This document shows, one piece after another, positions 6,779-62,052 of a stretch of 64,000 bases of DNA. The DNA comes from Candidatus Heimdallarchaeota archaeon. GTDB taxonomy: Archaea > Asgardarchaeota > Heimdallarchaeia > Hodarchaeales > Hodarchaeaceae. Every line of letters begins with the position of its first letter. The stretch's first letter is position 1. Location of the stretch: NCBI GenBank assembly GCA_020353515.1, contig CP070695.1, positions 633,722 through 697,721 of the forward strand. Reading direction: 5' to 3'. The notes below the pieces were generated by a model. That model was not told where the DNA came from, did not search any database, and saw only the letters and a program-made list of their open reading frames with translations. A program made the position numbers and the translations under genes.

Positions 6779-7876
6779 TTACTCATTTAAAGGATCAAGT
6801 CGTCGTAATCGTGACAGATTTCTTGATCGAAAAGTTTCAATTGGAGTTTCTACAAGAACTTTCCATTTACAAAAACAGCTACATAATTTTGAGGGATCAT
6901 CATTTACTTCTTCTTTCTCAGTGATCTTGTTAATTAGGTCAAGTACAGTTTTATCACATTTTCCGCAATTGTGAGTTCCTCTTAACTTCCCTCCTGCAGT
7001 TGGTTCGCAAAGAATCTCGATGTTCGGAAATTCTTCGCGAATTGTTTTCACAATATATAACACAGACCATATCCAAGGAGGCTGATAACGGTCTTGTTTG
7101 TGTAAGTGGCTCACTAGTGTTCCATTTTGGATATTGCACGGATTAAATGAAATTACGTCAGTTCCAATATCTATTGCGTCCCGAGCTGTCTTTATTGCAT
7201 CAACTATTGCTTCATTTTCAGTTAAAAATGGTGGTTTTACAAAAACATAACTTTTAAGTCGAATATTCAGTGAGCGAATTATTTGTACACTCTTCTTATA
7301 TTCTTTAATAGAGAATCCTTTATTCATACAATCTTTTAGAATAGCGTTGTTAGAACTCTCAATTCCTATCCCGATTTCTAGCTGAATAGGTTCTAATATC
7401 TTTTTAGCTTCTTTAATAATTTTAACTTGATTTATGAGAAATTCTGGCCTGTTTTCAACACTTAATTTATAGATATCAGGATTTTTCTGGATTTTTTCAA
7501 GAATTTTTATTCGTAAGTTTTTTGGCACATCATTTTCGTCAAAAAAACTACCAGAGTTATACAGCTTAAACTCAATGGGTTTAACAGAATCAACTCGACT
7601 TAGAGTAAGATCTATCTCTTTAAGAATTCTTTCTTCTGGAATAGGTCGCTCATGGGAAGAATCATTTATATAACCACAAACAGAACATCCTCCAGATTCC
7701 GAAAAAGCCCAGCTACATCCTCGTGTTGGAACTACCATTACAATAACAATATCTTGCCTAGTTTCTGTAATAGAACTCCATAATTTCGGTTTAAAATCCA
7801 GGGGACGATTTTCAAGAAATTCCTGTCGGATTTCAAAAATTTTTGAAGCTAACAAGAAGTTCTTTTGTAAAGGCAC
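6779..7876 (-). CDS. raSEA: Radical SAM enzyme RaSEA (archaeosine synthase beta subunit)
   Basis: TRGCSWA..GGCSVCGY, YNSGSFFD, KPPFLTE, HNCGKCD; directly downstream of arcS. Confidence 0.9.
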   Translation of the reverse strand: MPLQKNFLLASKIFEIRQEFLENRPLDFKPKLWSSITETRQDIVIVMVVPTRGCSWAFSESGGCSVCGYINDSSHERPIPEERILKEIDLTLSRVDSVKPIEFKLYNSGSFFDENDVPKNLRIKILEKIQKNPDIYKLSVENRPEFLINQVKIIKEAKKILEPIQLEIGIGIESSNNAILKDCMNKGFSIKEYKKSVQIIRSLNIRLKSYVFVKPPFLTENEAIVDAIKTARDAIDIGTDVISFNPCNIQNGTLVSHLHKQDRYQPPWIWSVLYIVKTIREEFPNIEILCEPTAGGKLRGTHNCGKCDKTVLDLINKITEKEEVNDDPSKLCSCFCKWKVLVETPIETFRSRNLSRLRRLDPLNE

Positions 7877-7877
7877 A

Positions 7878-9806
7878 CTACCTCACCTTTTGCCGAATAC
7901 TTATCCCCTTTCCATATTTCATTTTGACTAAAAGTTCCCCAGAAAGACGTGAGACTCCGACTGCTAATAGATCCCCATTTTCATTAATAATCAGAACTTC
8001 ATCATTCGGACGAATCTCAGAATCTGCCTTAATTATGGCTTTCGCGAAGATAGTAGAACCTTTAATCTTTTGACCATCAAAAGTAACCACATTACGAGTA
8101 TGGTTTAACAAAAGTCTCCCCGCTGAAAGAGATAAAGTCAAGTACCCTGTTTCAGGACGGAATGTGAGGAGGTGCTCCCCATTAAGCTGTACTCGCAACC
8201 CAAGCTCCTTTCGACCTTTAATTCTAACATTATTTGGAATTAAAAATGACCCACACCCCTTTCCAAATTGGAAATCCGCGATTGTTCTTAGAAATGTGAG
8301 CTGAGTGGCGATTTTAGGTGTAATAGAAATGTTTAGAAATGCTTCTTTAAGAAGGATTGAAAATTCATTCAATGCATCCTTTGAGGTTAATGATTTCGTG
8401 TTTTGATTGAGAATTAGAATTGGACGATTCTTTTGTCTACAAATTGCCTCTAATATTTCTCGTTCTGCTCCTTTAACATAACCTACGAGAGGAATTGACG
8501 GTTTAATTTTTGTTAGAAAGCCTATTAGATCTAGGGTTAGGTGATTTCTTTCAATCTGACTCCATTCACCTGTTACTGGAATATCATAATGAGCTGCTGG
8601 AAAGGAATACTCTAGATTTCGGGGTACTACTCCTAAGGGGCTAGTTAGAATAATTTCTTCAATTGAATGTCGTTTCCCCTTCAAGCTTTGACGAATGACT
8701 TTTCGAAAGAGGTTATGTGACCTTGATTGTGAATATGGCTTTTTCGCTGAACAGGGGAGAAAAATAAAGCCAGTTATAAGAGTGGACGGATGATAACGAG
8801 CTTTGATTCGTTCTCGAAAACGTTTTACTTCTGGACGGTTGAAATCCGTTTCATCAGTACAATTAAGTGTATGAGAATAGAGGGGAGTTCCCTCTTCTAG
8901 GGGAAGTTGAGAGTCACTGATTCTCAATAAAGCCTTTAAAGGAGGATAAGAATTTGCATAAATCCTGGTTAAATCCCTCAACTTTGATGAGGCTAGAGCT
9001 TTTCTTGTAAGTTGGAGAACATCAATAAATGATCTATTGGTAGTTTCTTGCTCAAGGATTGGAGTTGATTGTTTCGCAGGGTTCGTCTTATTCATCTCTG
9101 GAAAAAATAAATCAAGAAGATCGACTCCAAGGTAAACTAAAATCGGGATATAGCTTGAAGGAATTGCAGGAGCATATAACATCTTATTAGGGGATATCCA
9201 AGATCTAATTTGGATTAAATATTTTATTAGAAGTGATGGGTGTGTTAATAAAGATGAAATATCTCCTAAACACACTGCAGCAATTTTGGTAGACTTTATA
9301 CGAGGGAGTTTAATTTTAAGCTTTTCTGGTATTAGAGGAATGTTCAGTACAAATTTCATCTGATCATTTAACTTTGGTTCATCTATTTCATTGATTTTTT
9401 TCAAGTATTTTTCATATCGATCTAAGTGAATTGTGGGCAGATCCCAAGGAAGAAGGTGAAAGGAAATTCCTTGAATAGAAATTTTACTAATATCAATGGG
9501 AAACAAATCATCAAAACAGGTAATGTCCTCTAAAGACTTTCCTTGCATTTGTAAAGAAGGATAAGTAAAACAGGATGGGGTGAAAGAAAAATTTCTGTCT
9601 TCTTCTGTTTTAAGAAAACTAGATCTGGAACCTGGTTGAATTTCATTTATTTGACACTTAACGGAGGTTGGTAAAGAAAAGAATTGAGAATGGGAAGAAT
9701 CATCAAAAAAACATGGGTTCACTATATTTGGTGTGATAAACCCCTCTTTTCCGAAAGCACGCCCTATTCGTCCCCATCCTTCGCATTTCTCAATTTCAAA
9801 TGCCAT
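7878..9806 (-). CDS. arcS: Archaeosine synthase alpha subunit ArcS (TgtA2) with C-terminal PUA domain
   Basis: TGT-like N-terminus (GWGRIG, TPN), LPCSAKKPYSQSRSH, TSPLGVVPRNLE, YDIPVTGEW, C-terminal PUA (IRPNDEV...GKGISIR). Confidence 0.92.
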   Translation of the reverse strand: MAFEIEKCEGWGRIGRAFGKEGFITPNIVNPCFFDDSSHSQFFSLPTSVKCQINEIQPGSRSSFLKTEEDRNFSFTPSCFTYPSLQMQGKSLEDITCFDDLFPIDISKISIQGISFHLLPWDLPTIHLDRYEKYLKKINEIDEPKLNDQMKFVLNIPLIPEKLKIKLPRIKSTKIAAVCLGDISSLLTHPSLLIKYLIQIRSWISPNKMLYAPAIPSSYIPILVYLGVDLLDLFFPEMNKTNPAKQSTPILEQETTNRSFIDVLQLTRKALASSKLRDLTRIYANSYPPLKALLRISDSQLPLEEGTPLYSHTLNCTDETDFNRPEVKRFRERIKARYHPSTLITGFIFLPCSAKKPYSQSRSHNLFRKVIRQSLKGKRHSIEEIILTSPLGVVPRNLEYSFPAAHYDIPVTGEWSQIERNHLTLDLIGFLTKIKPSIPLVGYVKGAEREILEAICRQKNRPILILNQNTKSLTSKDALNEFSILLKEAFLNISITPKIATQLTFLRTIADFQFGKGCGSFLIPNNVRIKGRKELGLRVQLNGEHLLTFRPETGYLTLSLSAGRLLLNHTRNVVTFDGQKIKGSTIFAKAIIKADSEIRPNDEVLIINENGDLLAVGVSRLSGELLVKMKYGKGISIRQKVR

Positions 9807-10143: not shown

Positions 10144-11661
10144 TTGTTGAAGACCTTAATCATCTGTTTTCCGAAATTCCCCTTTCTTATCCTAATAATA
10201 GAAAGGTGGTACTTAATACACTTAATTAAAGAGAAATCAGCTTTGAGCTCACAAACTGATAGAAATTCAATTTTGGAATATTTTCGTCCTCGTGGAAAGA
10301 TAGTGTGTATTGGTGAGGACTTAACAACTGAATTAGGAATTATAAATGAATATTTAGCTACAAAAAATGATGCTCGTCTTCCTCATTTATATATAACCAC
10401 AAATCCAGCCTATAAAACTGATACGTGCGATCAGGTGGTTGTTTTTGATTCCGAAACGATGATGCCTCAGATATATCGTCTCTTAAATTCATACTTTTTA
10501 ATATTCATTTTCAATTCCTCTGAGGAAGGGATTTTCAAAATACTTGGGGCAATTTTAGCTTCTATCAAATTCTCTGGTTCTATTCCCTTATTTATTGATA
10601 CAGGAAAAGGATTATCTCAAGACCAAAAGGAAATTTTTGGTCAAAACTATTTCAATTTTGATTGTTCGATAAAAAACGGTCGTTGGGAATTTTTAATATT
10701 CATAGACAGCATAATCTCAGGACTTACACCATCTTCAGGATTTGGAGTGTCTTTCTCAAATTTAATCCGAATTTTTGGGAATTCTAAGTGCTTGTATTAT
10801 GGAATTTCCTCTTCTAAGAATTTAAATGATGCGATAGAAGAATCTATTAATCAAATCGGTGAGAAACTTGTTACTACTCTGCCTGAAAACCTTGAAAAAT
10901 TGCAAGTAATATTTCTTTCAATAGCTTCTGATAAACCTCTTAGTTTGAAAATATTGAACGAGATATCCAAACAAATTGCTAAAACCTTTGGAAAGGACAT
11001 CGAAATAGTTTTCTCTAATGTAATTGACTCACAAGCGTCAAGTTGTAATATCGTTATTATTTTAACTGATTCTCACCCAATAGATAGCATTATGCACAAT
11101 ACAACATCAACAGAGCTCCTTAATTCTGTAATTCCAAAACTTGCATCATGTGAAGCTTCAAATGAAAGAGATATCACGGACCCCATGCTTTTTAATGAGA
11201 TTTCTGATGAAGACGAGCGTTTTAAGATTTTAAACAGAATTTTCTCGGATTCTGAGATATATATTTTCGATGATGGTGGGCTTCCTTTATTTGCGAGTCA
11301 CCGTCCAGCTGGACAAGAAGTGTGTCTTTATACAGGCCTTTTTTCTGCAATTCAATCAATGAGTTCTGACTTAATCGGACACACACCTGACCATTTAACT
11401 GCAGGAGACAAACGATGCGTTTTTGTGTCACAGCTTGGGCCGCATAATTCTCAGTTACGAGGGGTTGCTATTTTCAACGCTGGCCTTGAAAAGAGTGCTC
11501 GTAATGATTTGACTGCATCCATGAATTTAGTTAAAAGACTTTTAGAGAAAGGAGAACCCGAATATGCTATTAATGACAAAATTCAAGTTCTTCTTGTTAA
11601 CGGATTCCATAATGGATCAATTGATAGCATTTTGAAATTAGCTGATTTCCATGCAAGCTGA
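10144..11661 (+). CDS. Degenerate FtsZ/tubulin-like domain fused to a C-terminal longin-like domain (start uncertain, may lie ~10216-10243)
   Basis: The segment ~10744-11070 follows the FtsZ C-terminal-domain pattern and lacks a GGGTG motif. The C-terminus 'IYIFDDGGLPLF...LYTGLFSAIQSMSSDL...HLTAGDKRCVFV' fits the Asgard longin pattern. Confidence 0.6.
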   Translation: MLKTLIICFPKFPFLILIIERWYLIHLIKEKSALSSQTDRNSILEYFRPRGKIVCIGEDLTTELGIINEYLATKNDARLPHLYITTNPAYKTDTCDQVVVFDSETMMPQIYRLLNSYFLIFIFNSSEEGIFKILGAILASIKFSGSIPLFIDTGKGLSQDQKEIFGQNYFNFDCSIKNGRWEFLIFIDSIISGLTPSSGFGVSFSNLIRIFGNSKCLYYGISSSKNLNDAIEESINQIGEKLVTTLPENLEKLQVIFLSIASDKPLSLKILNEISKQIAKTFGKDIEIVFSNVIDSQASSCNIVIILTDSHPIDSIMHNTTSTELLNSVIPKLASCEASNERDITDPMLFNEISDEDERFKILNRIFSDSEIYIFDDGGLPLFASHRPAGQEVCLYTGLFSAIQSMSSDLIGHTPDHLTAGDKRCVFVSQLGPHNSQLRGVAIFNAGLEKSARNDLTASMNLVKRLLEKGEPEYAINDKIQVLLVNGFHNGSIDSILKLADFHAS

Positions 11662-11695: not shown

Positions 11696-12337
11696 TTATC
11701 GAGATTTTGGGACTGAGTTATAAGAATCCTGTTGAAACACCCGTTCACAAACTTTCTCGACATGTGTGAATTCTTCCATAAGTTCTTGAATATGCCCAGG
11801 TTCAATGTAAATCTCTGACGTCCAGAGAACCAAGCAAATCGTGATCTTTGTGGGTTGTAAAGAAATTGATTCTTGAATTTCTTTTATTAACTGCTTTCGA
11901 AGTGTGAGTTCAGTCTCGTACATATCAACTATTTCTTGGATAGTTCTTTCTGCTTGCTCTATAATCTCGAGGTCATATGGCCATGTATCAGTTCCTTCCG
12001 TCACATGTTTTCTGGCCATTACTGAGAAATCTAAACGAAAAGTTCGTTCTATTTTTCTCATTTCGCTAACAATATCAGACAATTGATCAATATAAGAAAA
12101 AAGATCAGTAATACTTTTATTTATCAATTCTGCTAAATGGAAGGCTAATCGTTCTGGAATATCAGTAAATTTGGATAACAATGTTTTTGAAAAAGCATCA
12201 GGACGTTGAGTCAGGTTTAATCTTGAAAGAATAGTTAAAATATTATTTACCGTTCTTAATGAATGGCCTTGAACTGTATTCCATTTCTTCTGAGAAATTT
12301 GAAGTCTCTTCTTGAAGACACGAATACGCTGACTCAA
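11696..12337 (-). CDS. CINP/C1orf109-like helical protein
   Basis: 'TWP...MYETELTLRKQLIKEI...LVLWTSEIYIE' resembles the remembered CINP C-terminus (WP...MYRKELLLKRTVAKEL...LSMWLHQPYVE); similar length. Confidence 0.6.
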   Translation of the reverse strand: MSQRIRVFKKRLQISQKKWNTVQGHSLRTVNNILTILSRLNLTQRPDAFSKTLLSKFTDIPERLAFHLAELINKSITDLFSYIDQLSDIVSEMRKIERTFRLDFSVMARKHVTEGTDTWPYDLEIIEQAERTIQEIVDMYETELTLRKQLIKEIQESISLQPTKITICLVLWTSEIYIEPGHIQELMEEFTHVEKVCERVFQQDSYNSVPKSR

Positions 12338-12625: not shown

Positions 12626-14770
12626 ATGAATATTAAACCACAAAAACTCAATATCTTACTGATGGTTGTATTAGCATTAAGTTTTCTTGTTAATTGGTCT
12701 TCTCCACTTTCCCTAAGTTCAACTTCAAATATGAGGTTAGATCATCGAAATAAGATTACCAGGCCTTCAGATATAGTTTTAAAAAATGGGGTTCCTTTCG
12801 ATGCCCTCTTTACTAATGAATCATCGTCACATACTTATAAAATACGCCAAGTTTTGCAGGGACAAGAAGTTTATTTTTCTCTTAATCCTGATTATGATTT
12901 TAATGTGACACTCTATACTCCTTCAGGAACAATTTTTGAGATCGAAAGAGTAAATCATGAAACAAAGTATTTAGGGGTATGGGAAACATCAGTCAGTGGA
13001 AATTGGAGAATACAGGTGGATGATACAAGGCCAGTGAAAAATGAGAATCTTTCTTATAGCATTCAAGTAAATATGCCACTATTTGGTTTTAATGAAGTAT
13101 CAGCACAAGAACTTGACAGCTCAGTTTTTCAAGCTAATTTTAGTATAGACCATGAAAATCATTATTGGAAGGTCTATTTACACGATAATCAGAATGGAAC
13201 CCTTTTACTGAAGGAAACAGAACAAAGTGTTCTTTATAAATCAAGAATAACAATTTATCGTCGAGGACACCCCCAAAATCCAGTACTTCCTTCAGACACA
13301 ATTGAGAAAGGGAGTTATAATTATTCGTGGAATGCTTATAGTAATGATTTTTACTATATAGTAATAGGGCATAATCCTGATGAGGCTTTTTCCCCGCTAG
13401 GGGAATATAACATTTCTTTCATTTCTGAAGATGAATTATACAACTTTGAAACTGCAGGAAGGTTGCCTCATAATCAAACTATTTCAGTCCAATCCAATCA
13501 GCCCTTTTCTCCCAGAAAACCTTATTATTTTTGGTTTTTGGTAAATTCTAGTAGAGCGAATATATTTTTAAGGGTATTTGGGGTTGGTCCTGAAAGAAAT
13601 ATTCTGGAAGACTCTACAATTGAGATCTATGATGAAGGTGAGCAAAATCGAATTCATAAAGATCCCTTTGAAGAAATTGATCAAATTGTTGACAAAGAGT
13701 TTAACATCTCTCTGACAAATATTGATGCTGGAAAATATTATTTGAAGATCTCCCCTGAATCGAATGCGGTAGGGACATTCTACATTCATTTTCAGTATGA
13801 TTTACCAAGACCATTTGTTTGGACACCCCTGGCTATATTGCTTTGTTTCCTTGTGCTAGTCGCACTTCCTGGATATCTTATCTATCTTGATTGGAAAGGA
13901 AAGTGGTATCGGATAAATCAGTGGACCGTTCCTGCAGAGTTACAAGATACTTATAAGATTCTCAAAAATAGTTTTAGTGGGATTTTTAAAATTAAAGAGG
14001 TTCCAAACACTTCTATTTTAGTCCCAATTACAAATATTCCTTTCAAGACATTTGGATTGTTAAATTTTATCGAACCATCCGAAAAAGAAACATTAGTAGC
14101 AGTGAAACGTCTTCATCGAAAAATAGAGTGGTTCTTATATTTCTTACTTGGGATAATAATCTTTGATATCTTAAATTTTCTAAGTTTTACTTTTTTTTCA
14201 ATCCATTTTCTTCCTTTTGATGTCTCTAATTCGTTAGATTTATTATTTCTTTTGATAATACCAACAATCATCCTAATAATTATTGTGCTATTTGTAAATA
14301 TACCTTCTTATCTTAGTTACAGTCAAGTAGTAAGTAGGATATCTTATACTATTGAAAATTTCCAAGAATCCTCCCGTAAAGAATTTCCTACAAAGAGTTT
14401 GGATCCAGGACAGGCGTTAAAAAATATCAATTATGTTCGTGTTCTCTGGAACCAAGCCAAACATGCTTTTAAGGAAAGTAACTATGAACTTTTTGTGATT
14501 AAAGCTGATGCAGCAGTCAAAAATCTCCTATCTACTCGTTTTCAACAAGTAGTATCCAGTCCGATATATTCCAAACCTGATTTTCAGTTTCAGGTGACTA
14601 ATCTCCGAAGTCGCGGATTCGATCTTCCCAGCGAAAAAAAGATAGCCCACTTCCGAAATTTAAGAAATAGAATTGTGCATTCCTCAATCACATTAAATGA
14701 AAAAGAATCTGTTGACTGTTTTGCCTTTTATTCAACTTTTATCGCAAGACTGGGTCTTCGATCAAGTTAA
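12626..14770 (+). CDS. Membrane protein: signal peptide, three PPC-like beta-sandwich ectodomains, three TM helices, cytoplasmic HEPN-like domain
   Basis: Hydrophobic N-terminus; about 10 NxS/T sequons; repeated 'Y/W..F...D..l.lY....G.YY..I...G.Y.I' units; three TMs; C-terminal 'QAKHAFKESNYELFVIKADAAVKNLL...RNRIVH'. Confidence 0.75.
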   Translation: MNIKPQKLNILLMVVLALSFLVNWSSPLSLSSTSNMRLDHRNKITRPSDIVLKNGVPFDALFTNESSSHTYKIRQVLQGQEVYFSLNPDYDFNVTLYTPSGTIFEIERVNHETKYLGVWETSVSGNWRIQVDDTRPVKNENLSYSIQVNMPLFGFNEVSAQELDSSVFQANFSIDHENHYWKVYLHDNQNGTLLLKETEQSVLYKSRITIYRRGHPQNPVLPSDTIEKGSYNYSWNAYSNDFYYIVIGHNPDEAFSPLGEYNISFISEDELYNFETAGRLPHNQTISVQSNQPFSPRKPYYFWFLVNSSRANIFLRVFGVGPERNILEDSTIEIYDEGEQNRIHKDPFEEIDQIVDKEFNISLTNIDAGKYYLKISPESNAVGTFYIHFQYDLPRPFVWTPLAILLCFLVLVALPGYLIYLDWKGKWYRINQWTVPAELQDTYKILKNSFSGIFKIKEVPNTSILVPITNIPFKTFGLLNFIEPSEKETLVAVKRLHRKIEWFLYFLLGIIIFDILNFLSFTFFSIHFLPFDVSNSLDLLFLLIIPTIILIIIVLFVNIPSYLSYSQVVSRISYTIENFQESSRKEFPTKSLDPGQALKNINYVRVLWNQAKHAFKESNYELFVIKADAAVKNLLSTRFQQVVSSPIYSKPDFQFQVTNLRSRGFDLPSEKKIAHFRNLRNRIVHSSITLNEKESVDCFAFYSTFIARLGLRSS

Positions 14771-32488: not shown

Positions 32489-34192
32489 ATGGCTACTCCT
32501 AAAGTGATCAGTATTTATTCGCGAACCCCTAGCTGTGGGAAAAAAACAATAGCTCTAAATTTCTTTTTAGCTTATACTCAATCTAAACCTGGATTTCGAG
32601 TCCTTATTGTTGATTTTTCAAGGACTGAAAAGTTAAGATATTCACTTTTTAAATATGGAAAATCTCATTTTACTAGTACCGACTTTCTAAGCGAGATCTC
32701 TGAAGATACCCTTGTTAGTGAGTCTTTATCAATCTTTGAAGATAAGGACAAGGGTTCATTTGTGCGGGTTCTTCCTTCTTCTGGCGTTCCAATAACTCAG
32801 ATTGAGATACAGGAGCGTACTAAATATCGCGTAAATTCACTTTTCTTCAAAGATACAATAGATCTTCTTGCTTTCATTCTTCCAGTCAGTTTGGATGAGA
32901 AGAGTATTACAACGGCAGCAATTCTACAAAGTGACATGGTTTGGATTATTTCGTCAGAAAAATATCCAACATTCAATCTGACAAAATCTACAATTCAAAA
33001 TTTCTTATCTTTTCTTACCACACCCACTTTGGTAATCATGAACATGATGAAACCCCCAGTAGTTTTTGGGAAACTTGATAGAAAGCTAGAACTACTGGAA
33101 ACGAAACTTAGACATCCTATTTTTTACACAATTCCTTGGATTTCTGAGTTATATGAATTCTCAGATCAAGGTATTTATTATTTAGAATTACCACATTCCG
33201 AAGTAAATGAAACGTTTCAAGATTTGAGTCAAAGATTCCAAGATTTCACTGAAAAAGAGGAGTTTGGAAGAAGTAACGATGGTACGGAAGCATCTCCCAT
33301 TGCTTTGTTCATAACTGATCTTGAATCAGGATCAACCATGTATTATTACTTCTTTGGAAAAGCAGAGGACGAAATGAAAAATCCAGTACTCATAACAGCA
33401 GCGTTAACTAGCATTGCTCATATGGTATCAGAAACTGCAGGACGAAGAGGCGATTTACGCTATATCGATAATGGAAATATGAAAATTGTACAAAGGAAAG
33501 GAAAAAAAGTAATTGGGATTCTCTATAGTCCAGTTATGAACGATACTCTTACAGATTTACTGTTTAGGGTTATTGAACGGTTCGAAAAAGATTTCAAAGA
33601 AGCTATTATTGATTTTTCTAAGACAGGAAGTACTGGAGGATTTAGAGGGGTTACCAAAGTTGTAGAAGAAATCTTTGAACCCTTCGTTTTTGATATTGAT
33701 ACAGTAAATGAACAGTTACGTCAGAATATACTAACTTATGGAGCTGAAATCAATCTTCTGCGAGGAGATCCTGAAAGGCTATTCCATAATTATGTGCAGG
33801 AGAATTATTCTGATCCAAAAATCAAAGATTTGTTATTATACGAATTTACAACCTCCCACAATTCTAGACACGAGTATTTACTAGAATTAGGAATAAATCC
33901 AAGGCCTGAACGCCAAAAATTAGAAGAAGAAACAGGGAGAAAGATTTGTACTTGTACAGCGCCACCTCAGTATATTCAAATCCAACCTTTTGACACTCTA
34001 GGAATACTAGATCTCCCAGAAAAATTACGACCGACAATTAGAGCGTTGCTAACGTCTAAAGTGCTTTCTCCTGAATCATCAACAGAAATAACAAAACGTG
34101 GTCAGGATTTAGAACTTGAATGCTTAGAAGAATTACGAAAACGAGGATATGTTAAACGAGTCTCCCCTACCAATTCTGAATTACATATCTGA
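32489..34192 (+). CDS. Degenerate MinD/ParA-type ATPase fused to a longin domain and a C-terminal wHTH
   Basis: KVISIYSRTPSCGKKTIALN (deviant Walker A), VLIVD; longin 'ALFITDLESGSTMY...LITAALTSIAHMVSE...IDNGNMKIV...RFEKDF'; C-terminal 'LPEKLRPTIRALL...ITKR...LEELRKRGYV'. Confidence 0.75.
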   Translation: MATPKVISIYSRTPSCGKKTIALNFFLAYTQSKPGFRVLIVDFSRTEKLRYSLFKYGKSHFTSTDFLSEISEDTLVSESLSIFEDKDKGSFVRVLPSSGVPITQIEIQERTKYRVNSLFFKDTIDLLAFILPVSLDEKSITTAAILQSDMVWIISSEKYPTFNLTKSTIQNFLSFLTTPTLVIMNMMKPPVVFGKLDRKLELLETKLRHPIFYTIPWISELYEFSDQGIYYLELPHSEVNETFQDLSQRFQDFTEKEEFGRSNDGTEASPIALFITDLESGSTMYYYFFGKAEDEMKNPVLITAALTSIAHMVSETAGRRGDLRYIDNGNMKIVQRKGKKVIGILYSPVMNDTLTDLLFRVIERFEKDFKEAIIDFSKTGSTGGFRGVTKVVEEIFEPFVFDIDTVNEQLRQNILTYGAEINLLRGDPERLFHNYVQENYSDPKIKDLLLYEFTTSHNSRHEYLLELGINPRPERQKLEEETGRKICTCTAPPQYIQIQPFDTLGILDLPEKLRPTIRALLTSKVLSPESSTEITKRGQDLELECLEELRKRGYVKRVSPTNSELHI

Positions 34193-60681: not shown

Positions 60682-62052
60682 ATGTCAATTGAAGGAGGAC
60701 CAGAATCAGAGATCTTTGCAATTGGGATTGGTGAATGTGGCAGTAATCTCCTTGGGAGCTACCTAGCCAGATCTAAAAAAGGTGAGTTGCCTCAACGTAT
60801 TAGAGAATATCTAGTACTGAACACTGATAAAGGTGATTTACTGAAAGCCCGAAAAAAATATTCTATTTCAAAGAACCGAACCCTTCTCTATTCAGATGCA
60901 GAAATTGGAGTTGGGGGTAAGTTCTCAGCTGGTTATGAATCTGTAATAAACTCTCAGGACATTATTTTAAACCAGTTACAAGGGTTAGGTTATGAAGGAA
61001 TTAGTGGATTTTGTATATTTACAAGCTTTGGGGGAGGTACTGGATGTGGGGGAACACCTGCATTAATACAATTATTAAGAAAACGATTTGCTGAAGAAGA
61101 AAAACGTAAAATCTTCATATACGTCTTTGGGGTCTTACCTTTCGTTAATCAGTCATCTGAAGCAGTTAATAGCGTCTGGGCTTTGTCGAAATTACTTAGA
61201 CTTCAGCTCGAGGAAGGAAATATGGGACCAGATCTGATACTTCTTCTTTCTAATAGAACCATGCTTGAAAGGGTTTTAAGCTGGCAACGTGGGGAATCTG
61301 TCGATCTTTTGAGTCGCCAAATAGGAAAAGATTTAGCTGACTTAAGTAGTGAACAGGTAAGTTCTAGTATTCCCACAGTTATCGGTCAAGATGGAACAAC
61401 TTATCCAACCCAACTGGAAGAGGCTTTTGTTGAACTGGTTAATCCTCTAGCTTTGGAATCAATAGCTGAAATGTTATCACCTGGAGTACCAGAAGTTGGA
61501 AAGGAGGTTCTACCCACTACGGATATTGGTGACTTTGCGCTAAAATTAGATAGTGTCGTTGTACCTGCTATGTTTGATGATTTATCCGTTTTCCCAGAAA
61601 TCGGAGGGATGGATTCTCAGCTTTCAACTGCTGTAGAATATACTCTTTCTAATTGTAGCTTAACGGATATGGGAACGAACCCAACTGCATCATCTGTTTT
61701 CTCAGTACTAAGCGGCCCCCGTAACATTGCGCGAGTAGAATATGATCCCCTTTTGAAAAAAGCATTGGCTCCTTTTCTAGCAAAAGGTGCGAGTATTTCT
61801 CCTACTTATTGTGCTTATGATGATGATAGCACACGAGCATCTCTTCTTCTTTTGTTTGGTCTGCCAAAAATTCCAGAACTTCATGATATTCTTGAAGAAG
61901 CTAAAGCACTCATTAATCTTCATAGTGGGGACTCTGAATTGAAACAACACTGGTTTAAACGTTCAAAAGGTACAACGCGAAAAGAACTTGATGAGGCCGT
62001 AAATGATCTGGAAAAATTATTCGGTTACTATATAAAACCAGAAAAAGGATAA
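60682..62052 (+). CDS. Tubulin/FtsZ-superfamily GTPase (divergent, CetZ/tubulin-like)
   Basis: IGIGECGSN (T1), LNTD (T2), GVGG (T3), SFGGGTGCG (T4), VLPF (T5), LLSN (T6), TTDIGDF (T7-like DxxD). Confidence 0.92.
   Translation: MSIEGGPESEIFAIGIGECGSNLLGSYLARSKKGELPQRIREYLVLNTDKGDLLKARKKYSISKNRTLLYSDAEIGVGGKFSAGYESVINSQDIILNQLQGLGYEGISGFCIFTSFGGGTGCGGTPALIQLLRKRFAEEEKRKIFIYVFGVLPFVNQSSEAVNSVWALSKLLRLQLEEGNMGPDLILLLSNRTMLERVLSWQRGESVDLLSRQIGKDLADLSSEQVSSSIPTVIGQDGTTYPTQLEEAFVELVNPLALESIAEMLSPGVPEVGKEVLPTTDIGDFALKLDSVVVPAMFDDLSVFPEIGGMDSQLSTAVEYTLSNCSLTDMGTNPTASSVFSVLSGPRNIARVEYDPLLKKALAPFLAKGASISPTYCAYDDDSTRASLLLLFGLPKIPELHDILEEAKALINLHSGDSELKQHWFKRSKGTTRKELDEAVNDLEKLFGYYIKPEKG

Follow-up and report, generated by a model that had tools for sequence, protein, structure and literature searches.

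A 64,000-nucleotide stretch of a Candidatus Heimdallarchaeota archaeon genome (GenBank assembly GCA_020353515.1, contig CP070695.1, positions 633,722–697,721 of the forward strand; hereafter the window) carries a gene whose product, protein P0002, joins an FtsZ-type domain to a longin-type domain. According to structure models and profile comparisons, P0002 is an FtsZ fold stripped of its guanosine triphosphate (GTP)-binding loops and tethered to a eukaryote-style longin domain, and represents a Hodarchaeales-specific paralog of FtsZ. The genome carrying the gene is a single contig of 4.94 Mb.

Gene and start codon

The gene most likely spans positions 10243–11661 (+) of the window, stop codon included, and is read from a TTG start to give a product of 472 amino acids (aa). 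It lies within an open frame at 10144–11661 (+), whose translation holds all of the strings quoted in an earlier note on this DNA. That note began the frame at 10144; we place the start at 10243 because the TTG found there is conserved and because the database entry for P0002 is 472 aa long. This TTG is the sole start candidate with a conserved position (12 of 12 orthologous loci examined), several orthologous frames begin only a few codons 5′ of it, and there is no ATG near the 5′ end of the 10144–11661 frame. The 67 homologs are ~460–477 aa in length, and the gene is free of internal stops in all 22 genomes of the genus, this one included. The 33-codon in-frame extension upstream (10144–10242, +) is unconserved among orthologs and probably untranslated. 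Residue numbers used here refer to the 472-aa protein; those of the earlier note are higher by 33.

The FtsZ-fold domain

In the model, residues 13–277 (10279–11073, +) form an entire FtsZ fold of two subdomains, composed of a nucleotide-binding-like subdomain, helix H7, the T7 loop and a C-terminal subdomain. The AlphaFold2 model, computed from 50 family members and no templates, has a predicted local distance difference test score (pLDDT) of 80–94 across most of residues 14–285. The top 50 Foldseek matches of this model in the PDB are all FtsZ (best expectation value (E) 6e-14), which is the outcome that the earlier note had anticipated for such a check. VIA-align superposes the model on residues 7–311 of Mycobacterium tuberculosis FtsZ with a Z-score (Z) of 20.1 and a root-mean-square deviation of 3.1 Å over 251 residues, covering both subdomains. 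In the ESM Atlas, a shape search likewise matches FtsZ clusters to residues 13–277; a feature search with P0002 returned nothing usable.

Sequence comparisons point in the same direction. The Pfam FtsZ_C model matches P0002 at E 0.013 (16.2 bits, below the cut-off of 27), there is no match to Pfam Tubulin, and TIGR00065 gives E 0.04 (13.2 bits versus a cut-off of 295.2). A phmmer search of the PDB with P0002 retrieves almost exclusively FtsZ chains, which also account for 25 of the 27 matches of the family profile to PDB sequences (best E 0.014). Aligned by hhalign with Heimdallarchaeia FtsZ, the family gives a local match over residues 157–278 at E 3.7e-5; at a relaxed threshold the match grows to 318 columns, colinear throughout, with 90% probability. 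The extended alignment pairs KIVCIGEDL with VQVVGVGGAG, the S1–T1 stretch of FtsZ. The strongest likeness, both by hidden Markov model (HMM) alignment and by hhalign, lies in the stretch that runs from T7 into the C-terminal subdomain. The resemblance to FtsZ had been proposed by eye, with the N-terminal KIVCIGE read as strand 1; the profile and structure scores put the resemblance above chance, and the hhalign register gives the same reading of KIVCIGE.

Loss of the nucleotide site

The GTP-binding loops of FtsZ are missing or replaced in P0002, as judged from the hhalign register and from column counts over 50 family members. The T1 remnant (residues 24–30; 10312–10332, +) reads G-E-D-L-T-T-E where FtsZ has G-G-G-G-N-N. 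Across the family, G24 is kept in 48 of the 50 sequences and is followed by D/E, D/N, L, two variable positions and E; the glycine-rich loop is gone. The T3 loop (GxGAGxxP in FtsZ) is deleted in this register. In place of the G-G-G-T-G-T-G tubulin signature at T4, residues 90–96 (10510–10530, +) read F-N-S-S-E-E-G, and the corresponding family motif, F-N91-S92-S93-E-x-G, is well kept (N91 47/50, S92 50/50, S93 47/50, E94 42/50). The T7 synergy loop remnant (residues 168–174; 10744–10764, +), which was also placed by an HMM alignment to Bacillus subtilis FtsZ, reads G-V-S-F-S-N-L versus N-x-D-F-x-D-V. Its F171 is invariant, and the first FtsZ aspartate is Ser or Thr in 49 of 50 members. At the second aspartate position, 29 members have Asp and 19 have Asn. 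P0002 itself, with GVSFSN, keeps neither aspartate, so that the loss of both T7 aspartates and of the GGGTG loop, remarked on earlier, is correct for this protein.

Because T1, T3 and T4 are lost, P0002 is almost certainly incapable of FtsZ-like GTP binding or hydrolysis, to judge from its motifs. The residues found instead are near-invariant in the family (D63, Q64, N91, S92, S93, P115 and D119). The old pocket has been remodeled and retained, with no drift.

Linker, longin domain and C-terminal tail

The FtsZ-fold domain is followed by a putative disordered linker (residues 286–321; 11098–11205, +), in which pLDDT falls below 50 and mean identity is 23%, versus 54–77% in the folded domains. 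Its position is comparable to that of the FtsZ C-terminal linker. The remainder of the protein is made up of a domain that we assign to the longin/roadblock superfamily (residues 322–465; 11206–11637, +) and a short tail. The former is the best-conserved part of P0002, with a mean identity of 77%. The tail (residues 469–472; 11647–11658, +) reads F-H-A-S-COOH; among the 50 sequences A471 and S472 are invariant, position 469 is F or Y and position 470 is H or Q. Distant relatives end in A-S, A-Y or A-F.

The C-terminal ~150 residues were modeled alone by AlphaFold2 from 39 sequences (pLDDT 77; predicted template modeling score 0.72). The elements follow the order alpha0-beta1-beta2-alpha1-beta3-beta4-beta5-alpha2-alpha3, with an N-terminal helix at model residues 5–16, strands beginning at model residues 20, 31, 67, 73 and 87, and helices at 43, 99 and 123. 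Foldseek matches this model to Mon1, MglB and Fuzzy at E 2e-4 to 5e-4, and to LAMTOR, TRAPP, sigma-adaptin and Sec22b at E up to 5e-3. In VIA-align, model residues 18–152 superpose on Trs23/TRAPPC4 (Z 10.4), MON1A (10.1), BLOC-3 (9.4) and Fuzzy (9.3). Roadblock proteins align over model residues 9–120 with Z 8.2–8.9, ~1–1.5 units under the longins. All of these values are modestly above the background of 7–8 quoted for the tool, and the longin/roadblock assignment is made because the list of matches is consistent rather than because Z is high. A search of 48,161 chains independent of Foldseek returned almost only longin, roadblock and profilin-type folds among its top 50.

For the C-terminal domain of P0002 no Pfam model, longin or other, gives a match, and only the relative P0069 gives a weak match, to Fuz_longin_1 (E 0.0019, 18.9 bits versus a cut-off of 26.1). 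On the strength of the models, the domain is a member of the longin/roadblock superfamily with longin topology and an additional N-terminal helix. The extra helix agrees with the difference between longin and roadblock folds described by Tran et al. (PMC10933270). The longin-like C-terminus proposed earlier is thus upheld, with ~145 residues folding in this manner.

Other longin-like proteins are encoded in the same genome. The weak paralogs of the P0002 longin domain (E ~0.004) are longin-like proteins with no Pfam assignment. A MinD-like–longin fusion had previously been noted at 32489–34192 of the window; the P0002 longin profile does not match its longin part significantly (hhalign E 0.089). 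At locus L002 630–2124 (G000:C1:930585–932079), the gene for a MinD/ParA-like ATPase, whose Walker A motif is KGGVGKS, overlaps the next gene, which encodes a longin-like and winged-helix protein (TrmB-type, E 1.6e-4), which makes this the second longin tied to a positioning NTPase in this genome.

Distribution and selection

All named homologs of P0002 come from Hodarchaeales or from Heimdallarchaeota-type Asgard metagenome-assembled genomes (MAGs), and all are annotated as hypothetical, with no precomputed Pfam domain. Exhaustive searching of 1.84 billion cluster representatives with HMMER returned only 15 proteins: the family, one relative at 39% identity, fragments and some more distant relatives. 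In a survey of 400 genomes of the phylum, 21 of 21 other species of the genus have a full-length match, in one copy each and without stops. In the sister family of the same order, the C-terminal part alone matches, in both genomes. The rest of the 400 genomes yielded no full-length homolog and just two weak matches to the C-terminal domain. The sister-family protein in genome G079, which is 495 aa long, is taken to be a diverged ortholog because its gene shares flanking genes with that of P0002. In 24 genomes representative of the order, FtsZ and a P0002-type protein are each encoded as separate genes.

Comparison with five orthologs gives ratios of nonsynonymous to synonymous substitution rates (dN/dS) of 0.10–0.17 for the FtsZ-like domain, 0.29–0.58 for the linker and 0.03–0.08 for the longin domain; dS is ~1–1.7 and near saturation, which makes these values rough. 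The ratios indicate that both folded domains are clearly under purifying selection and that the gene is not decaying.

A GTPase-intact relative and the probable origin of the family

The relative P0074 combines a genuine FtsZ with a longin-type domain. This 572-aa protein, recovered by the exhaustive HMMER search and encoded on a 1980-bp metagenomic contig (run SRR31656001), consists of an FtsZ core, a long linker and a C-terminal domain, of which the last 120 residues match the P0002 longin domain at E 1e-9 and 35% identity. Its N-terminal part matches Pfam Tubulin (E 4e-40) and FtsZ_C (E 1.5e-19) and passes the equivalog cut-off of TIGR00065 (332 bits versus 295). It keeps the GGGGNN, GGGTGTG and NLDYSD motifs, and its tail ends in Ala-Ser. 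In a small tree, the P0074 core, which has a long branch, groups with the single FtsZ of the genus (50% identity) at a support of 94/94.

Two relatives from Hodarchaeales MAGs look like sequence intermediates between FtsZ and the P0002 type: P0079 still matches the ftsZ model at E 7e-6, and P0083 has lost T1 and T4 and kept a full T7 motif, NIDFND. No further intact FtsZ–longin fusion was found in the 24 order-representative genomes, and a metagenome scan gave nothing but an unrelated FtsZ.

An FtsZ duplicate is the probable source of P0002 because P0074 is a GTPase-intact FtsZ with a homologous C-terminal domain. The simplest history, as we infer it, is that the FtsZ of the lineage was duplicated, acquired a longin domain beyond its linker and afterwards lost its GTP site. 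The origin step is thinly supported because our searches found P0074 on a single 1980-bp contig, too short to show any gene context, and none of the 24 order-representative genomes carries a fusion of this kind. FtsZ is present as two paralogs in family f7 of the same class and as one in this order. Descent from the second archaeal FtsZ paralog, FtsZ2, was considered and set aside, since only family f7 has two FtsZ genes and P0074 groups with the single FtsZ of the genus.

Predicted complex with the host FtsZ

The genome encodes one canonical FtsZ and two divergent proteins of the tubulin family. The canonical gene (L005 856–2259 (-), G000:C1 ~2326459–2327859) would specify an N-terminal extension of ~80 residues if the first ATG is the start, and its product ends in a basic/hydrophobic tail, KKSRKKFLGLF. 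The divergent tubulin/FtsZ-family genes lie at 60682–62052 (+) of the window and at L006 679–2004 (-), with PF00091 matches at E 2.8e-17 and 1.7e-19. The L006 copy adjoins a gene for a 478-aa helical protein.

A complex was predicted from the host FtsZ core (16-row alignment), GTP and P0002 residues 10–290 (50-row alignment). The interaction prediction score from aligned errors (ipSAE) was 0.64, 0.62 and 0.64, versus 0.01 for the best control. At least 84% of contacts recur between runs, with a partner pLDDT of 77 or more. When the tool was calibrated, 58 of 80 solved complexes reached this mark, as did 2 of 110 mismatched pairs, counts that are only a rough guide here because we supplied our own alignments and a ligand.

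The predicted contact is the canonical longitudinal FtsZ contact, with P0002 as the subunit that donates T7. In FtsZ filaments, the bottom face of one subunit (T7, H8 and the C-terminal subdomain) enters the nucleotide pocket of its neighbor. On the FtsZ side, the modeled interface is formed by the T2, T3, T5 and T6–H7 loops (core residues 40–47, 60–72, 131–138 and 164–176). On the P0002 side it is formed by residues 163–176, which include T7, together with residues 232–243, 251–259 and 279–284. Capping of, or co-assembly with, FtsZ had been suggested in the earlier note. The suggestion gains a structural form at the level of the model, with P0002 presenting its T7 face to the GTP-binding side of the host FtsZ, but the prediction may owe something to the memory of solved filaments. 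The note's other suggestion was that small-GTPase regulation could be recruited to the filaments; no GTPase gene is linked to that of P0002, either here or in its distant relatives.

A model for P0002 function and its alternatives

The explanation that we tentatively favor, and regard as quite possible, is that P0002 is a GTP-dead FtsZ paralog that docks its bottom face on the nucleotide face of FtsZ and is directed by its longin domain. P0002 would not polymerize by itself. Its FtsZ-like bottom face (T7 loop, H8 and C-terminal subdomain) would instead engage a canonical FtsZ subunit at its top face, where GTP is bound, and P0002 would occupy the nucleotide-exposing end of the filament. The filament would not extend beyond P0002 because the dead top face could not take another subunit. 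The tethered longin domain would dimerize, or dock on a longin/roadblock protein or a small GTPase, and would set the place and timing of this contact.

According to PMC8936486, which cites Du et al. 2018, a bacterial FtsZ monomer is believed to join the filament by placing its top face, with the bound GTP, on the bottom face exposed there. The nucleotide-exposing end is the shrinking (minus) end in bacteria, and P0002 would thus be a minus-end cap, anchor or seed that does not block growth. In a bolder and rather unlikely form of this explanation, the GTP-dead paralog would be a filament-end anchor or seed analogous to gamma-tubulin or ARC3, and a small GTPase or a longin/roadblock platform would control the filament ends through it. 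Were this true, GTPase-type signaling modules of a prokaryote would be wired straight to the tubulin-superfamily cytoskeleton.

Several points weigh against docking on FtsZ ends. FtsZ–FtsZ filament structures have already been solved, and the complex score may partly reflect the model's memory of them, and so report a likeness to FtsZ rather than binding of P0002. The controls were unrelated proteins, with no other FtsZ-fold protein among them, and our alignments and ligand set these runs apart from the calibration. The adaptor function that P0002 may have on filament ends comes from modeling, and the polarity of FtsZ filaments is established for bacterial FtsZ only. No conserved gene neighbor tied to division or to a GTPase is found here, in the sister family or in the distant relatives. 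In our searches, the intact FtsZ–longin relative P0074 occurred on its one 1980-bp contig only. Finally, the conserved remodeled pocket (D63, Q64, N91, S92, S93 and D119) could be a site for another ligand or partner, unrelated to FtsZ filaments.

A different reading, which we consider unlikely, centers on the longin domain. P0002 would be a regulator or scaffold for small GTPases, of the guanine nucleotide exchange factor (GEF) or GTPase-activating protein type exemplified by Mon1–Ccz1, TRAPP and MglB, and the dead FtsZ fold would be a structural or ligand-binding module repurposed away from FtsZ filaments. The longin domain is indeed the most conserved part of the protein, both in identity (77%) and in dN/dS (0.03–0.08), and the structures that it resembles most are Rab GEF longin domains. 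The nucleotide pocket has been turned into a new near-invariant motif set, and shuffling in Asgard genomes has joined longin domains to many domains with which they are unrelated (bioRxiv 10.1101/2020.10.19.343400; PMC10933270). However, no GTPase gene lies near the P0002 gene or near those of the distant relatives P0079 and P0082. The T7/C-subdomain face has kept its likeness to FtsZ, and it is this face that meets FtsZ in the controlled complex model. The existence in P0074 of an intact FtsZ bearing a homologous longin domain also counts against this reading.

P0002 might alternatively assemble independently of nucleotide, forming filaments or oligomers of the dead FtsZ fold that are decorated with longin domains. 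Retention of the full FtsZ fold and strong purifying selection on both domains would suit such a role, and the conserved, altered motifs of the top face could make a new homotypic interface. The top interface of FtsZ, however, is organized around the nucleotide along with loops T3 and T5, features that P0002 lacks or has replaced, and we regard self-assembly as improbable. Similarly improbable is a partnership with one of the two divergent tubulin-family proteins (window 60682–62052 or the L006 paralog) in place of canonical FtsZ. Two such PF00091 proteins do exist besides the one FtsZ, one of them 49 kb downstream in the window, but neither linkage nor co-variation evidence connects them with P0002. 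P0002 is itself FtsZ-like, P0074 groups with the FtsZ of the genus, and the pairing with FtsZ already scores well. That P0002 is a decaying FtsZ duplicate without a function of its own is hardly credible: loss of every GTP-binding motif would be expected of a decaying gene, but this one is intact and single-copy in 21 of 21 species and present in the sister family, its replaced motifs are near-invariant, and both domains have dN/dS values far under 1, even if these are read with the caution due to near-saturated dS.

Gene neighborhood and other loci

The P0002 gene and its G079 ortholog are both flanked by ArcS-like and radical S-adenosylmethionine (radical-SAM) genes on one side and by a gene for a large membrane protein on the other. 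In the window, a radical-SAM gene followed by a gene with DUF5591, TGT_C2 and PUA domains occupies 6779–9806 (-); this ArcS/RaSEA-type archaeosine pair is divergent from the P0002 gene. The corresponding ArcS/radical-SAM pair flanks the diverged sister-family ortholog at L024 2–2539. The large membrane proteins (714 aa, window 12626–14770 (+); 786 aa, L024 4832–7192 (-) in G079) have no Pfam match, and those of both families have in common a C-terminal helical region with an R-N-x-x-x-H-S-S motif. The genes of the distant relatives P0079 and P0082 have unrelated neighbors, and no operon partner can be recognized.

Convergent to the P0002 gene, and 35 bp from it, is a gene for a 213-aa helical protein (11696–12337, -) that matches the Pfam CA109-like family (PF15011, C1orf109-like ribosome biogenesis) at E 2.5e-11 (44.1 bits versus a cut-off of 27). 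The family is of eukaryotic type, here encoded by an archaeon.

Pfam SepF was undetected in this genome and in 20 of 21 species of the genus. A 103-aa open reading frame in genome G073 is weakly SepF-like (L072 550–861, E 0.009), and its 65%-identical homolog in the present genome (G000:C1:2757821–2758111 (-), L074) may, by sequence, be a divergent SepF. The idea that P0002 replaces SepF was rejected because families f6 and f3, in which P0002 is absent, likewise give no Pfam SepF match, and because a divergent SepF-like gene is present here.

Relation to known systems and implications

Compared with canonical FtsZ (6ym1, 2q1x, 2vap and Odinarchaeota FtsZ1 9v7v; TIGR00065), P0002 has the same two-subdomain fold and the same colinear order, which starts at S1, passes H7 and T7 and finishes with the C-terminal subdomain, at Z 17.6–20.1, and likewise has a disordered linker after the globular core. 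It differs in having lost the T1 glycine loop, the T3 loop, GGGTGTG and the T7 aspartates, and no more than ~250 core residues can be aligned, versus the ~290–310 modeled in FtsZ chains. Where FtsZ ends in a short C-terminal peptide, P0002 has a longin domain. P0074 has the architecture of P0002 and the Ala-Ser tail but differs by its intact GTPase motifs.

The C-terminal domain has an alpha/beta sandwich and a beta-beta-alpha-beta-beta-beta-alpha-alpha order in common with the longins of tri-longin Rab GEFs and TRAPP (Mon1, HPS1/BLOC-3, Fuzzy and Trs23/TRAPPC4). The sandwich also occurs in the roadblock proteins (MglB, LAMTOR and Asgard roadblocks), which give the lower Z range of 8.2–8.9 versus 9.3–10.4 for the longins. 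With its N-terminal helix the domain is topologically intermediate between longin and roadblock, and it is unlike either group in being fused to FtsZ.

Pseudo-enzymes of the tubulin/FtsZ superfamily are, to our knowledge, rare, the characterized example known to us being plant ARC3, a key regulator of FtsZ-ring placement. ARC3 is composed of FtsZ-like, middle and MORN domains and is a direct inhibitor of FtsZ assembly; the MORN domain at its C-terminus keeps the protein autoinhibited and attaches it to two membrane proteins, PARC6 and ARC6 (PMC12232670). As in P0002, an FtsZ-derived domain is fused to a C-terminal protein-interaction domain, and the working model for P0002 follows this design, in which one domain would act on FtsZ and the other would control and localize it. 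ARC3 arose independently in plastids and carries a MORN domain, whereas P0002 carries a longin domain and has no Pfam MORN match, and the resemblance is best read as an analogy of design, not as homology or family membership. The full-text literature on FtsZ with longin, Asgard, Hodarchaeales or fusion yielded no published description of an FtsZ–longin architecture, even in the papers where one would most be expected, in line with the view taken at the outset that no such protein had been described, a view that overlooked ARC3 as a precedent for a degenerate FtsZ with an adaptor domain. What is new here is the FtsZ–longin architecture; longin shuffling in Asgard archaea and the ARC3 type of FtsZ-derived pseudo-GTPase were already known.

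The P0002 family joins a fold of the archaeal division cytoskeleton to a longin domain, and it is present in every sampled Hodarchaeales genome. In eukaryotes, the longin fold provides the platform on which Rab and Rag GTPases are regulated. According to a proposal by Eme et al. 2023, cited in PMC12583498, no other group is more closely related to eukaryotes than the Hodarchaeales. If our model is wrong, the family would still be an unannotated and strongly conserved marker of the lineage. If the binding to filament ends is real, it would offer a testable handle on the organization of FtsZ filaments in an Asgard archaeon, and a test of whether the link between trafficking modules and the cytoskeleton predates eukaryotes.

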